NCBI GenBank assembly: GCA_049840735.1
Contig: JASGJN010000020.1
Location: 192,001-256,000 of the forward strand
DNA: 64,000 nt
DNA from: Anaeromyxobacter sp.
GTDB taxonomy: Bacteria > Myxococcota > Myxococcia > Myxococcales > Anaeromyxobacteraceae
Direction of reading: 5' to 3'
Shown: positions 3,592 to 9,433 of the stretch, piece by piece
How positions within the stretch are numbered: the first letter of the stretch is position 1
Layout: each line of letters starts with the position of its first letter
Notes under the pieces: generated by a model
The model's input: the letters and a program-made list of their open reading frames with translations, nothing else
Told to the model about the DNA's origin: nothing
The model's database searches: none
Translations under genes and position numbers: made by a program

Positions 3592-3607
3592 TGGCACGCG
3601 CCATGAA
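3592..3607 (+). promoter_or_regulatory. Candidate sigma54 (-24/-12) promoter
   Basis: TGGCACGCGCCATGAA has a perfect -24 TGGCACG, but GA replaces GC at -12. It lies just upstream of the 3623 ATG. Confidence 0.45.
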
Positions 3608-3622
3608 CTGCCCGACGGGTCC

Positions 3623-4528
3623 ATGATCAACCGGCCCGCACCCGCTGCCCCGCCGCGCTCGCCCGAGGAGGCCCTCCGGGCCTACGCCGAGGTCCTGGCG
3701 CCCACCGCGATCGACGCCGCCCACCTCGACCGCGTGAGGGCCACGGTCGAGCGCGCCTGCCGCGGCTTCGGGGTGACCGCGGTCGAGCCGGCGGGGAGCA
3801 GGGTGCGCGGCACGGCCATCCGCGCGGCCGAGCCGCTCGACCTGCTGGTGATCGCGCCGCGCGGGGACGGGTGGGGCGAGTGCTCACGCGCCGCCATCGC
3901 CGGGCTCGCCGCGGCTGCGGCGGAGACCATGGGCGTGAACACCTGGGACGAGCGGCTCGGCGCGTTCGTCGAGCTGGAGCCGGGCCCTGGGCTGCAGCTC
4001 ATCCCGGCTGCCGGTCGCCCCTCGACGAGCGCAGCGCGACCCGAGCCTCCCGCCGCGTTCGAGGTGCGCCTCCCCGACGGACGCGGGGGCTGGACCGACG
4101 CCACCCCGCGGGCCCACGACCTCCACCTGGCAGCGGTGGCGAGCGGCAGCCCCACCCACCTCATGACCGTGCGGATCCTGCGCGCCTGGCGGGCGCTGCG
4201 GCCGGCGGTCGAGGGCCTCTCGGCCTTCGCCATGGAGCTGGCCCTCGCGGCGTGCGGCGGTGTAGGCCAGGCAGGCCGGCTGACGGAGGCCGTGCAGGCG
4301 GCCCTCGAGGCGCTCGCCGCCCGGCTGGGCGGTGGTCAGGGGGTGCGCGATCCGCTGGGGCTCCTCCCGCCCATCCAGCTCGCCTCCCCGGACGGCCGCG
4401 CGCGGCTCGCCCTCGAGGTCGAGCGGGCGCAGCGGCTGGCGGCCCTGGCCGCGCGCGCGGAGGCCGAGGGTGACCTGGAGGAGGCGCGCCTCCTCTGGGC
4501 GCTGGCCATCGGATACGCGGAACAATGA
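3623..4528 (+). CDS. cGAS/DncV-like (SMODS-type) nucleotidyltransferase-fold protein with degenerate catalytic acids
   Basis: GSRVRGTAIRAAEPLDLLV, LQLIPA, LPDGRGGWTDATPRAH, VRILRAW, SAFAMEL, DP and A..AE..G...A...W...G occur in the order seen in SMODS/CD-NTases. The DxD reads PLD and the third acid reads Q. Confidence 0.7.
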   Translation: MINRPAPAAPPRSPEEALRAYAEVLAPTAIDAAHLDRVRATVERACRGFGVTAVEPAGSRVRGTAIRAAEPLDLLVIAPRGDGWGECSRAAIAGLAAAAAETMGVNTWDERLGAFVELEPGPGLQLIPAAGRPSTSAARPEPPAAFEVRLPDGRGGWTDATPRAHDLHLAAVASGSPTHLMTVRILRAWRALRPAVEGLSAFAMELALAACGGVGQAGRLTEAVQAALEALAARLGGGQGVRDPLGLLPPIQLASPDGRARLALEVERAQRLAALAARAEAEGDLEEARLLWALAIGYAEQ

Positions 4529-4654
4529 CCCGGCGCGCTGGCCTCCCTCCCCGCCATCCAGGGATGGCTTCCGGGGAGCTGCCCCGGCATCATCGGTGCC
4601 CGATGAAGGACTGCAATCAGAATCCCAACCCCCGACCTCCAGAGCGCCGTGGCG

Positions 4655-5947
4655 ATGCTGGACCGGCTGTCGCCGGATCGGTGGCAGCGCGCCCTCGCCG
4701 CCACCGTCAACCAGCGCTGGGCGCGCAGCCGGCTCCTGCTCTTCGCCGCGCTGTACGCGGCCTGGGGCGCGCTCTGCCTGACCTTGTGGCGCGTCGGCTA
4801 CCCGCCCTGGCGCGTGGCCGTGCTCGGCGCGGCGCTGGTGTCCCTCGTGCTGCTCCACCTGCGCGGGCTCTGGGCCGACGAGCCCACGGCCTACCAGCGC
4901 GACGATCGGCGCTCGCTCTTCGCCGCGCTGGTCGCGATCTGCGCCACCGGCGGGCTCGACAGCCCGCTGCTCCTGGCCATCACCGGGATGTTCTCCAGCT
5001 ACCTCATGCGCCAGGGGCTCACGCGGGAGGTCCGGATCGCGTTCGGCACCCTCTTCGCGCTGGCGGTCGGCCTGGCGCTGATCCCGGAGGCCTGGATGGC
5101 CCCGCCCATGCCCGCGCCGATCCACCGGATCACCACCCTGGTCGTGCTGCTCTCCAGCCTGGTGCTCAACGCCGACTACATGGTGCTGATGATGCGGACC
5201 GGCAGCGACGCCCTCCGCGCGCTGGTCCGGAGCCGGAGCGAGCGCGCCAGCGAGGCGCTGGAGCGGGCGGCGCAGCTGGAGCGGATGTCCTCGCGCCTGT
5301 CCCACGAGCTCAAGAACCCCCTCAGCGCCATCAAGGCGCTGGTCCAGCTCTCCGTGGCCGCCGAGCGGGATCCGGACAACCGCCTCCGGCTCGAGGTGGT
5401 CGCCGGGGAGGTGGACCGGATGCAGGGGATCATCCAGGGCTACCTCTCGTTCTCCCGCCCGCTGGACGCGCTCCAGCTCTCGGCGCTGGAGCTGGCGCCG
5501 CTGGTGGACGAGGTGGTGGCCATCCTGGAGGGCCGGGCGGAGGCCGCCCAGGTGGCGCTCCGCAGGCGCGGCGACGGCGCGACGCGCGGCGATCCCCGCC
5601 ACCTCAAGGTGGCGCTCATCAACCTGGTCGCGAACGCCATCGAGGCGTCGCCGCCGGGCACCACGGTGGAGCTCGGCATCGACCGCCTCGGGGACGCGCT
5701 CCAGCTGACGATCCGGGACCAGGGGCGCGGGATGACGCCGGAGGTGCTGGAGCGGGTGGGCATCCCCTTCTTCACCACCCGGGAGGCCGGCACCGGGCTG
5801 GGCGTGAGCATCGCGCGGGCGGCCATCGAGGCGCACGGCGGCCGGCTGTCCTACGAGAGCGGAGCGGAGCGCGGCACGGTCGCGACCGTGACGCTCCCTC
5901 ACCGGACCGGGGAGGCGGATCATGGCGCGCGTGCTGCTGGTCGATGA
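4655..5947 (+). CDS. Membrane-bound sensor histidine kinase
   Basis: Several TM segments with TGGLDSP, H-box SHELKNPL, N-box NLVANAIEA, DQGRGM, and FFTT..GTGLG. Confidence 0.93.
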   Translation: MLDRLSPDRWQRALAATVNQRWARSRLLLFAALYAAWGALCLTLWRVGYPPWRVAVLGAALVSLVLLHLRGLWADEPTAYQRDDRRSLFAALVAICATGGLDSPLLLAITGMFSSYLMRQGLTREVRIAFGTLFALAVGLALIPEAWMAPPMPAPIHRITTLVVLLSSLVLNADYMVLMMRTGSDALRALVRSRSERASEALERAAQLERMSSRLSHELKNPLSAIKALVQLSVAAERDPDNRLRLEVVAGEVDRMQGIIQGYLSFSRPLDALQLSALELAPLVDEVVAILEGRAEAAQVALRRRGDGATRGDPRHLKVALINLVANAIEASPPGTTVELGIDRLGDALQLTIRDQGRGMTPEVLERVGIPFFTTREAGTGLGVSIARAAIEAHGGRLSYESGAERGTVATVTLPHRTGEADHGARAAGR

Positions 5948-7283
5948 CGAGTCGGCGGTCCTCTTCGCCATGAAGGAGGTGGTCCGGGCGGCCGGGAACG
6001 AGCCGGTGCTGGCGCGCTCGGCCGCGGAGGCGCTCCAGCAGCTCGAGGGCGTGGACGCCGTGGTGACGGACTTCGCCATGCCCGGGGTGGACGGCCTGGC
6101 CCTCCTGCAGGCCATCCGCGAGCGCGATCCGTCGCTGCCGGTGATCCTGCTCACGGCGCAGGGCTCGGAGCGGCTGGCGGTGCGCGCCATGAAGGCGGGG
6201 GCCCACGAGTACGTCACCAAGCCCTTCGACGTGGAGGAGATGTCGCTCGTCATCGAGCGCGCGCTGGAGGCCCGCGGCCTCAGGCTCCGCAACCAGCGGC
6301 TCGAGACGGAGAAGGCCCTCGGCAAGGCCTTCGTGGCGGACGCGCCCCCCATGCGCCGCCTGCTGCGCGAGATCGGGCAGGTGGCGCCGCGCGACGTCAC
6401 GGTGCTGGTTCGCGGGGAGACCGGCACCGGCAAGGAGCTGGTCGCCTCGATGCTCCACGCCCAGAGCCGGCGCGCCGCGGGGCCGCTCGTCCGCTTCAAC
6501 TGCGCCGCGATCCCGGCGGAGCTGGCGGAGGCAGAGCTGTTCGGCCACGCGCGGGGCGCCTTCACCGGCGCCACCCAGGCGCGGCGGGGCTTCTTCGCCG
6601 AGGCGCACGGCGGCACCATCGTGCTGGACGAGGTGGGTGAGCTCCCGGCGGCGCTCCAGCCGAAGCTCCTCCGCGTGCTGCAGGAGGGCGAGCTCCAGCC
6701 GGTCGGCTCGGGCCGGATCGAGCGGGTGGACGTGCGCGTGGTCGCCTCCACCAACCGCGACCTCGAGGCCGACGCCCGCGCAGGCCGGTTCAGGGAGGAC
6801 CTCTATTACCGGCTGGCCGTGCTGGAGCTCGTCGTCCCGCCGCTGCGCGACCGCCGGGAGGACATCCCCGCCCTCGCGACCGAGTTCGCGCGACGCTGGG
6901 CGGAGCGGTTCAGCCTGGAGAACGTCCGCCTCTCCCCTGCCCTCCTCGCCCGGCTGGGCGCCGCAGACTGGCCCGGCAACGTCCGGCAGCTGGAGAGCGC
7001 CGTCGCCCGCCTGGTGGTGCTGGGAGGCGGTGGCGAGCTCGGCCCCGAGGCCTTCCAGGGCACCGGGAGGCCGGCCACGGCGCCGGCCGCGGACGAGCCG
7101 GAAGAGGGCGCAGTCCCCGAGGGCGGGCCTTCGCTCCGCGAGCAGCTCGAGGCGCTCGAGCGCAGCCTGATCGTGAGGGCCATGGCCGCGGCGAGCGGCA
7201 ACCAGTCGGAGGCCGCGCGCAGGCTGGGCATCGGGAGGACGCCGCTCATCGATCGGCTGAAGAAGTATGGCCTGTCCTCCTAG
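5922..7283 (+). CDS. Sigma54-dependent response regulator (NtrC family)
   Basis: Receiver domain, [38 protein letters not shown] and a C-terminal Fis-type HTH. Confidence 0.96.
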   Translation: MARVLLVDDESAVLFAMKEVVRAAGNEPVLARSAAEALQQLEGVDAVVTDFAMPGVDGLALLQAIRERDPSLPVILLTAQGSERLAVRAMKAGAHEYVTKPFDVEEMSLVIERALEARGLRLRNQRLETEKALGKAFVADAPPMRRLLREIGQVAPRDVTVLVRGETGTGKELVASMLHAQSRRAAGPLVRFNCAAIPAELAEAELFGHARGAFTGATQARRGFFAEAHGGTIVLDEVGELPAALQPKLLRVLQEGELQPVGSGRIERVDVRVVASTNRDLEADARAGRFREDLYYRLAVLELVVPPLRDRREDIPALATEFARRWAERFSLENVRLSPALLARLGAADWPGNVRQLESAVARLVVLGGGGELGPEAFQGTGRPATAPAADEPEEGAVPEGGPSLREQLEALERSLIVRAMAAASGNQSEAARRLGIGRTPLIDRLKKYGLSS

Positions 7284-8352
7284 GCCCTCCCGCAGCGCGA
7301 ACCTGGGCTCCTCGCCACCCTCCCCGCCTCCAGCGGGCCGCCGCCCATCGGCGGCGCTGGCCCTGGCCCTGGGGGCGGTCCTGGCCCTGGCCGGCTGCGA
7401 AGCCCACCTGCCAGCGCCCAACGAGCCCTCGGCGTTCCTGGAGCGGTCCACCGCCTTCGTGTCCTCCGACCGCGCGCAGGCGTTCGAGGTCGATCCGGCG
7501 CTGCACCTGCTGCTCTGGAACGACCTCGCCGACCTGGCCGCAGCCGGGCAGGACGGCGTCGCGACCGTCGGCTCCGTCTCGGTCCTCGGGCAGTTCCGCC
7601 TGCTGTCCGGGGAGTCCACCCCGCTGCGGATTCCCACCTACGAGCCCCGGGTCAAGCTCCAGGTCTTCGACCGGCTCAGCGTCGCGCGCACGCCCGACGA
7701 GCCGCCGGAGGTGGTCCTGGCCGCGCTCGAGCTGTTCCTGGGACACCGCTCGAACGGCCAGGACGCCTGCGCGCTCGCGAACCACGAGCGCATCGGGGGC
7801 TCCGACTTCGCCTGCGTCCCCACCACCGACCCGCCCGACACCGCGCTCGACACCCGCAGCGGGAGCTTCACCACCAACTATGTCGGCCTGGGCGCCGGCG
7901 GGCAGTGGATCGGTCCTCGCGCGGCGGGCGGGCTCCCGTCCTTCCTGGCCGCGCTCCACGCCAGCAGCGAGTGGAACCTGGGCTGCGACCTGGGGGCCTG
8001 CATGTCCAACCGGCTGCGCCGGCGCTATGGCGCAGCGCTGCTCCGCTGGTCGGTGGAGGGTGAGCTCCCGGCCCTCGGTCGCCTGCCGCTCCCCGGGGTG
8101 GGCGTGGACCTCGGGCTGCGCGCCGGCGTGTCCGGGGTGATGCACGCGGCCGCGGCCGAGCACGAGCCCTTCGGCGAGGTGAGCCTGGAGGTGGCGGTGG
8201 CGGGGCGCCCCCGACGCAGCGGGCTGACCACGGCCCTCTTCCTCAGGCGGCACCAGGGGAGCGACCCCCTCAACATCCGGTTCGAGGAGCGGCTGGACGT
8301 CTGGATCGTGGGCTTCAGCTTCGAGCCGGCCACCTTCCGGGCGACGCGCTGA
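7267..8352 (+). CDS. Putative lipoprotein resembling outer-membrane phospholipase A (OMPLA/PldA-like)
   Basis: Lipobox LAGC. STPLRIPTYEP and GHRSNGQ resemble PldA SPFRETNYEP and HxSNG. Amphipathic beta-strand C-terminus. Start uncertain. Confidence 0.55.
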   Translation: MACPPRPSRSANLGSSPPSPPPAGRRPSAALALALGAVLALAGCEAHLPAPNEPSAFLERSTAFVSSDRAQAFEVDPALHLLLWNDLADLAAAGQDGVATVGSVSVLGQFRLLSGESTPLRIPTYEPRVKLQVFDRLSVARTPDEPPEVVLAALELFLGHRSNGQDACALANHERIGGSDFACVPTTDPPDTALDTRSGSFTTNYVGLGAGGQWIGPRAAGGLPSFLAALHASSEWNLGCDLGACMSNRLRRRYGAALLRWSVEGELPALGRLPLPGVGVDLGLRAGVSGVMHAAAAEHEPFGEVSLEVAVAGRPRRSGLTTALFLRRHQGSDPLNIRFEERLDVWIVGFSFEPATFRATR

Positions 8353-8380: not shown

Positions 8381-9433
8381 TCAGCCGAGCAGGTCCAGCA
8401 CCCGCCGCGCCGCCCGCTCCGCGCCGCCCAGCTCCGGCGGCGGCGGCACCGGCAGCTCCAGCGCCCGCCGGATGGGCTCGGCGATCCGCCCCGCCCGCAG
8501 CTCGGCGTTGGGCACGTGCACGCAGGCCAGCCAGCGCGGCATCTCCGCCACCATCACCGGGTACTCGGGGAAGTCGCCGCGCTCGGTGTAGACCACCCGC
8601 GCGCCGCAGGCGATGGCGTCGGTGACGATCCCGTAGCCGGGCTTGGTCACCACCACGTCGCTCGCTCCCACGGCGTCGATGTAGCGGAGCCCGGCCCGGG
8701 CCAGCCGTTCCTCCGTCAGGTCTTCGGGGAAGAGCCACTGCCAGGCGGCCTCGCGCGCCAGCACCGGGCGCGTCAGGGCCGGCACGCCGATGCCGCCGAA
8801 CGAGACCAGCACCACAGGTCGCCCGTCCAGCCCCAGCCGGCGGCGCGCCTCTGTTCGCGGCGCGCCGGGGCGGCGGGCCACGAAGCCCACCGGCTCGCGG
8901 CGCGGGAAGGCGGACAGCTCGCCGGCGAAGGGCAGCTCCAGCAGCAGCGCGGCGTGGGCGTAAGCCCGCGCGGCCCGCTCCGCGCTGGCGAGGAGCGTCG
9001 GCTGGCGGACCGCCAGGTGCCGGTAGATCCAGTCCCAGGAGAAGTTGCTGCAGCCCACGGCCGGCACGCCTGCCCGCGCGGCCGCCTCGAAGGGCAGCGC
9101 CGGGAGGTCGGCCAGCACCAGCCGCGCGTCCGACCGGCGCAGGAAGGCGGCCTCGCGCTCGACCACGGCCTCCCACCCGGCGTCGAACGCGGCGCAGCGC
9201 CGGGCGCTCTCCGCCTCGTCGATCTCCAGCGCGTCGCGCTGGACCAGCCCCACGTCGCAGGCCACCGGGCGCAGCGCCAGCGGGTCCGACACGTCGCGTC
9301 GGACCAGCCCCTCGGGGACGGTGCCGGTCAAGGTGATGGGAAGGTCCGGGGCGGCGGCGCGGACGGCCCTGAGGACCTCGCAGAGCCGTACCAGGTGGCC
9401 GTAGCCGTGGCCGGAGACGTAGGCGGCGAGCAT
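8381..9433 (-). CDS. GT-B fold glycosyltransferase-like protein (similar to arabinokinase N-terminal domain)
   Basis: SGHGYGH, NFSWDWIY, VTKPGYG and ERGDFPE motifs. Confidence 0.75.
   Translation of the reverse strand: MLAAYVSGHGYGHLVRLCEVLRAVRAAAPDLPITLTGTVPEGLVRRDVSDPLALRPVACDVGLVQRDALEIDEAESARRCAAFDAGWEAVVEREAAFLRRSDARLVLADLPALPFEAAARAGVPAVGCSNFSWDWIYRHLAVRQPTLLASAERAARAYAHAALLLELPFAGELSAFPRREPVGFVARRPGAPRTEARRRLGLDGRPVVLVSFGGIGVPALTRPVLAREAAWQWLFPEDLTEERLARAGLRYIDAVGASDVVVTKPGYGIVTDAIACGARVVYTERGDFPEYPVMVAEMPRWLACVHVPNAELRAGRIAEPIRRALELPVPPPPELGGAERAARRVLDLLG

Follow-up and report, generated by a model that had tools for sequence, protein, structure and literature searches.

Bacterial CD-NTases (cGAS/DncV-like nucleotidyltransferases) are described as the signal makers of CBASS (antiphage signaling systems based on cyclic oligonucleotides), and the locus considered here raises the question of what a protein of this fold may do once its catalytic residues are gone. 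The locus lies within a 64,000-nucleotide stretch of contig JASGJN010000020.1 from Anaeromyxobacter sp. (assembly GCA_049840735.1, positions 192,001 to 256,000 of the forward strand), hereafter called the window, to which all positions refer. The gene in question, on the plus strand at 3623..4528, encodes a 301-aa protein, P0001, and is followed by genes for a histidine kinase, an NtrC-type sigma54 activator, and a lipoprotein. It is proposed, with a probability of roughly 0.58, that P0001 is a non-catalytic, predicted nucleotide-binding pseudoenzyme that belongs to a small conserved group and has no shown tie to the neighboring genes. An earlier sequence-only reading of this DNA, which placed and translated the four open reading frames (ORFs) correctly, saw here a domesticated pseudoenzyme wired to sigma54 signaling and a membrane lipase output, with a decaying CBASS remnant as the alternative.

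P0001 carries the motifs G58-S59-x-x-R62-GTAI, E70-P71-L72-D73, and L-Q125-L-I-P128-A, followed by W157..P162..H165, R187-A-W189, F202..E205, D243-P244, and A288..W292. The protein matches five PADLOC oligonucleotide-cyclase models (best E 1e-10) and scores at E 2.4e-29 against a profile of its intact relatives; Pfam (including SMODS) and NCBIfam CD-NTase models gave no match. The ESM Atlas model (predicted template modeling score, pTM, 0.78) resembles SMODS clusters with TM scores of 0.75-0.78. An AlphaFold2 (AF2) model obtained with a 123-row alignment, 122 rows of which were intact homologues, reached a pLDDT (predicted local distance difference test) of 88, and its best structural match was Pseudomonas aeruginosa CdnD (PaCdnD, PDB 6P82/6P8J), with Z 26.1 and a root-mean-square deviation of 2.8 Å for 276 residues (Foldseek E 1.5e-11). 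Both lobes of the pol-beta/SMODS nucleotidyltransferase fold and the C-terminal helical lobe of CD-NTases are present in the predicted models, and P0001 shares with clade D the GS-x-x-R, hhPA, W..P..H, DP, and terminal W motifs. As modeled, P0001 is a CD-NTase-fold protein, clade-D-like by fold and ancestry, so that the hallmarks recognized at first from the letters are borne out by profile and structure comparison.

The departure from clade D lies in the active site and in the surroundings of the gene. The acidic triad for two metals, [DE]h[DE]...[DE], reads P71-x-D73/Q125 in P0001, as had been noticed, and D-D-D in 129/129 aligned homologues, which would place P0001 outside the active CD-NTases. 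Both replacements are unambiguous in the alignment, each takes at least two base changes as read from the sequence, and no other reading frame of the region scores against the CD-NTase profile; a simple sequencing error is therefore unlikely. The protein retains G58, S59, R62, D73, R187, W157, W189, and D243-P244. Unlike clade D enzymes of CBASS, P0001 has neither Asp1 nor Asp3, and no effector (4TM, SLATT, patatin, SAVED, or nuclease), HORMA, or Trip13 gene is adjacent to it. The earlier statement that CBASS partners are missing from the locus was correct, and by this P0001 would fall outside CBASS.

The same catalytic loss is found in other proteins. An exhaustive phmmer search of 1.84 billion representatives returned 113 rows, with the triad DDD in 92, DDE in 11, fragmentary in five, and degenerate in five (P0001 P-D-Q, P0124 S-D-V, P0136 G-D-V, P0152 A-D-N, and P0199 K-N-R). 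The metagenomic protein P0124 (289 aa) is 40% identical to P0001 over its full length (E 7.5e-34), far ahead of the other rows, and P0136, a partial metagenomic sequence, is 37% identical over residues 7-195. Asp1 and Asp3 are gone and the second Asp is kept in all three, so the loss first noticed in P0001 is shared; the replacing P and Q residues themselves are not, since they differ in the two relatives. W..RLGAF, G[LI].LIPA, and LR.Y.E..AP are common to the three proteins, which fall together on the same side of a branch whose SH-aLRT (Shimodaira-Hasegawa-like approximate likelihood ratio test) support is 100 in a quick tree of 34 rows, where P0136 was cut to 200 residues. They also share 22 residues, each present in less than 10% of intact homologues (beyond residue 195 the tally covers P0001 and P0124 alone), and these support common ancestry despite the caveats of the tree given below. 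The two full-length members carry net charges of -4 and -3, compared with a mean of +9 in intact homologues. P0152 and P0199 lie outside the group on the tree, which suggests from the sequences independent losses of catalysis; with two unrelated degenerate CD-NTases among the same 113 rows, catalytic loss may recur.

Further members were sought more widely. A profile of the three proteins detected none in 92 family, 401 phylum, and 20 other-class genomes, and none was found in viral contigs, in plasmid records (P0124 as query), or in phage records (P0001 as query). Word-indexed protein searches, run with P0001 as a whole and with its residues 45-215, brought back nothing beyond the query, a misleading result, as the exhaustive search did find relatives. 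A single-protein pattern scan of GTDB contigs gave no locus, its exact 8-residue patterns being such as would miss relatives at 40% identity, and the one candidate from a scan of this kind in metagenome contigs (L012) was spurious, a phosphoesterase-like ORF by eye. A pattern scan based on a mixed alignment yielded six intact CD-NTase loci and 11 actinobacterial matches; of the latter, the one translated was an unrelated ligase-like ORF, and neither of the two run against the CD-NTase profile scored.

The group shows constraint. Identity between P0001 and P0124 is concentrated in family-conserved columns (44/65, compared with 63/218 of the others; Fisher p 3e-8), and codon-position GC along the entire P0001 ORF is typical of a coding gene. 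From these patterns we infer purifying selection on the group after the catalytic loss.

The prediction of nucleotide binding comes from the residues that remain. In Enterobacter cloacae CdnD (EcCdnD), Asp69, Asp71, and Asp121 bind metal A; in the ddATP complex the ligands of metal B are the triphosphate and, among the residues, only Asp71, with Ser53 and Arg56 touching the phosphates (PMC8096243). By motif spacing, the EcCdnD residues were mapped onto S59, R62, and D73 of P0001. G-S-x-x-R and the second Asp persist in every member of the group, as does a basic residue at 187 (K in 115 and R in 14 of 129 homologues), which we take to contact phosphate. Retention of the donor-site residues together with loss of Asp1 and Asp3 is the pattern expected for holding Mg-NTP (magnesium-bound nucleoside triphosphate) without catalysis. 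DxD mutants of CdnC (10.1101/694695) and DDAA mutants of type I CBASS (10.1101/2023.05.21.541620) are inactive.

It is proposed that the ancestor would have been a cyclase of type I CBASS, CdnD-like and paired with a membrane effector, and that the effector and the metal-A ligands would have been lost while the cyclase-derived gene was kept. S59, R62, D73, and R187 would then hold Mg-NTP in the donor pocket, no phosphodiester bond would form without metal A, and nucleotide occupancy would serve as a conformational signal read by some partner, as in eukaryotic pseudo-nucleotidyltransferases. The two-component pair is a lineage cassette found beside many genes and, if linked at all, would more likely drive transcription of P0001 from a weak sigma54-like site than receive input from P0001. 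MiD51 and NF45/NF90 are non-catalytic nucleotide-binding adaptors. They belong to the same fold family (NF45/NF90 by the DZF domain) and are among the Foldseek hits of the P0001 model, with ATP, CTP, or UTP in the titles of the NF90-NF45 entries; however, they are far more distant than clade D (TM about 0.6, 13-18% identity), which makes this an analogy of working mode and not of shared membership. By that analogy, P0001 likely works like the eukaryotic pseudo-nucleotidyltransferases.

Several observations weigh against this reading. The S-F-H-x-E motif has lost its Ser and its His/Tyr, possibly at a cost to nucleotide binding, and the D69A variant of EcCdnD has some activity left (PMC8096243). 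AF2 with the P0001 sequence alone gave a pLDDT of only 44.5, and the good model leans on intact homologues. Only three members of the group are known, each a singleton cluster, and from about residue 195 on the frame of P0136 seems to be lost, which means that one of the three may be broken or mis-assembled. The long stem and the biased composition of P0001 may have inflated the support on the tree. P0001 keeps 20 of 35 highly conserved columns, compared with 28-35 in intact homologues, and its branch length is 5.1, compared with 0.1-0.9 for the nearest intact tree neighbors. In a simulation of neutral decay, started from eight intact genes with 25 runs each, means of the hidden Markov model (HMM) score were 77-103 against 89-92 for P0001, and 15-18 conserved columns were kept against 20-21. 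With only the intact relatives as reference, conservation in P0001 did not clearly exceed neutral decay.

The best-surviving alternative, which we still regard as unlikely, is that P0001 is a nucleotide sensor that controls the kinase or the NtrC activator beside it, that the OMPLA-like (outer membrane phospholipase A-like) lipoprotein is the output, and that all four genes form one operon. In its fuller and equally doubtful form, a domesticated CBASS cyclase would sense the ATP level or cyclic oligonucleotides, made by neighbors or by phage-triggered systems, within a sigma54-controlled unit comprising the two-component pair and an outer-membrane phospholipase. If true, such a unit would be a prokaryotic counterpart of the MiD51/NF45-type pseudo-nucleotidyltransferases, wired to ordinary signal transduction. 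The arrangement of the genes speaks for it. Domain searches found a membrane histidine kinase with HisKA and HATPase_c domains and a hydrophobic N-terminal half (4649..5947) and an NtrC-type sigma54 activator with REC, AAA+ (with GAFTGA), and HTH_8 (5922..7283), and these are followed by a predicted lipoprotein at 7267..8352 (lipobox LAGC44), recognized by its HxSNG motif, here HRSNG, and by Atlas look-alikes. These three genes are as the sequence-only reading described them; all lie on the plus strand together with P0001, with overlaps or gaps of at most 120 nt. A weak sigma54-like -24/-12 site, TGGCACG-N5-TGAA (3592..3607, plus strand), stands 31 nt ahead of the P0001 ATG, and the closest kinase orthologue (L043) has a TGGCACG-N5-TGC site nearby. 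The lipoprotein is also found near a kinase/activator paralogue, in convergent orientation, in two of six wide lipoprotein loci.

Against such coupling, the neighboring genes are found widely without a CD-NTase. Among the other 36 genomes of the genus, 15 hold kinase homologues (E <= 1e-60) and 14 hold lipoprotein homologues, and a CD-NTase profile that included P0001 scored nowhere among 40 further loci of the kinase or the lipoprotein (12 covered with 8-16 kb around them, the rest with 1.5 kb flanks). Orthologues of the kinase and activator (47-57% and 72-79% identical, respectively) have unrelated neighbors at their six loci, and no intact CD-NTase relative adjoins the kinase, activator, or lipoprotein (nine loci with 8-19 kb around, two with 1.5 kb flanks). 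For its input the kinase has a membrane region of its own, and it appears to have a separate promoter as well. CATCAT-N9-ATG at 4588-4605 (hexamer 4588..4593, plus strand) is similar to the CATGAT/GATAAT/CAATGAT hexamers that kinase orthologues carry 7-10 nt ahead of their starts, a comparison made by eye over six orthologue and three paralogue upstream regions, and this suggests from sequence a separate promoter of the kinase-activator pair; a scan for the sigma70 consensus did not report the CATCAT hexamer. The hairpin region between P0001 and the kinase folds no better than its shuffles (z -0.44), and no terminator was called in it. As to the sigma54-like site, it has A where the usual -12 TGC has C, and a site of such kind occurs in only one of 12 wide loci scanned. 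Genome-wide, a gene start follows 24-45 nt on at five of 35 TGGCACR-N5-TGC sites, at one of 11 sites of the TGA variant (the P0001 site itself), and at 35 of 695 sites of the non-TG background, so the enrichment is weak. The site, if real, hints that P0001 would be a target of a sigma54 activator and not its sensor. The first proposal for this locus therefore holds in part: the domesticated pseudoenzyme is supported by two relatives with the same loss, their grouping on the tree, and constraint, and the wiring to sigma54 signaling and lipase output is not.

The surroundings of these genes add some detail. The source genome is 6.7 Mb and 94% complete, and GC around the locus is 72-80%, with no step at the P0001 region. 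P0001 is flanked by an epimerase gene on one hand and by the kinase, activator, and lipoprotein genes on the other. The gene at 8381-9433 has different neighbors in all four relatives examined, which indicates that the region has been rearranged. ATG 4603 is a candidate for the true start of the kinase, with the frame off by one base across a C5 run at 4629-4633; kinase orthologues have M and 7-8 residues before G-P-D-L, the same register as ATG 4603. Two explanations would fit, an error in the assembly or a genuine frameshift followed by a re-start at 4649/4655.

HxSNG is the catalytic motif of OMPLA. The lipoprotein shares it with OMPLA/phospholipase A1 (PF02253), and HxSNG is present at 15/15 loci checked; it differs in having no Pfam, NCBIfam, or PDB sequence match, and it resembles phospholipase A1 clusters by Atlas models only (TM 0.62-0.63), its best look-alikes being unnamed clusters. 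PADLOC gave no match for it or for the kinase. The family (7267-8352 here, L014-L027 elsewhere) is common in the genus, is represented among unnamed Atlas clusters from Myxococcota, Acidobacteriota, and Bacteroidota, and has no Pfam family; it is likely an unannotated OMPLA-like branch. The patatin phospholipases (CapV) that act as CBASS effectors are presumably not among its relatives.

The possibility that ranks next, also improbable, is altered chemistry, in which D73, possibly assisted by the acidic residue at position 70, would support a one-metal reaction such as hydrolysis of NTP or oligonucleotides, or slow transfer. D73 never varies, the residue at position 70 is acidic in P0001 (E) and P0124 (D), and the residual activity of EcCdnD D69A mentioned above points the same way. 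Against it, Q, V, and V stand in place of the third Asp, P0136 has G at position 70, which lies outside the DxD register, and the three residues found instead of Asp1 (P, S, G) are unrelated to one another, the outcome expected where constraint on a site has been lifted.

A CBASS remnant slowly decaying without present function has a still slimmer chance. The reading of P0001 as a lone decaying remnant is dropped in view of its relatives, their grouping, and the constraint. The long branch would fit decay, as would a composition with high GARP (Gly, Ala, Arg, and Pro) content, no Lys, and GC3 (GC at third codon positions) in the lower fifth of sampled ORFs, residue conservation inside the neutral range in the one simulation, the apparent frameshift of P0136, and the patchy occurrence. 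Against this stand two full-length open frames whose 40% identity is concentrated in conserved columns, and coding-type GC over the whole ORF. Stop codons would be expected under neutrality: the simulated runs had 4-7 of them rejected per run on average and ended at GC3 0.69-0.83, compared with 0.92 and an open frame in P0001. P0001 is probably not a lone decaying remnant, and the alternative raised in the sequence-only reading is the less likely one.

The descent from CBASS is illustrated by the intact relatives. Within the order, 11/362 other genomes match, at 26-32% identity and with D-D-D in 11/11. Genes beside eight of these were tested; three were S_4TM above the cut-off, one was a weak SLATT_4, and four had no Pfam match. 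The picture is that of type I CBASS in lower-GC, mobile-looking regions, similar to the type I CdnD-4TM operon (EcCdnD12-4TM, 10.1101/2023.05.21.541620), as the nearest intact relatives lie beside S_4TM or SLATT-like genes. GC3 is 0.63-0.87 in the eight nearest of them, compared with the host-like value of P0001. Some of these loci are worth noticing in their own right. Two different intact CdnD-like cyclases stand in tandem before a 165-aa SLATT-like gene in L008 (7224-9966) and L009 (genomes G017 and G007), the first with an N-terminal extension of about 160 aa containing a hydrophobic segment. In L007 (4753-10401, genome G006) a CdnD-like cyclase with the same kind of N-terminal membrane extension is followed by a SLATT_4 gene with a weak match, then by a SMODS-AGS_C cyclase and by an ATPase that looks OLD-like by eye, which brings two cyclases of different clades into one operon. 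Hydrophobic proteins of about 290-320 aa without a Pfam match directly follow intact CdnD-like cyclases in L010 (8048-9010), L075 (5453-6349), and L076 (6176-7045), and are possibly divergent 4TM-type effectors. A further intact CD-NTase, with a KDVDVL motif and followed by a long ORF, lies at L103 (G006:C1:1997365-1998102).

Closely related intact CBASS loci in lower-GC, mobile-looking regions of same-genus genomes indicate that such systems enter this lineage, and a decoy or dominant-negative regulator soaking up cyclic nucleotides or CBASS partners of incoming mobile elements could be imagined; this is very improbable, as no other CD-NTase was found in the 94%-complete genome of P0001 and no group member among viral contigs, phage, or plasmid records. 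A search of that genome for S_4TM also gave no match, with control genomes equally blank.

The locus thus presents a real, conserved pseudoenzyme group without a demonstrated system, and the four-gene system is unsupported. No natural bacterial CD-NTase pseudoenzyme is described in the titles and abstracts of the literature searched, mostly outside subscription papers and supplements, and passages of PMC11506125, PMC7159879, and PMC10732462 and the abstract of PMC12991175 contain nothing on one, although supplements could hold entries. The significance is limited by three members, by the lack of a known partner, and by the missing support for the four-gene system. In animals, enzymes with the cGAS fold have on repeated occasions been made into non-catalytic adaptors. 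A conserved bacterial group that has dropped exactly the metal-A ligands while keeping the donor-site residues would be a small, testable case of immune-enzyme domestication.

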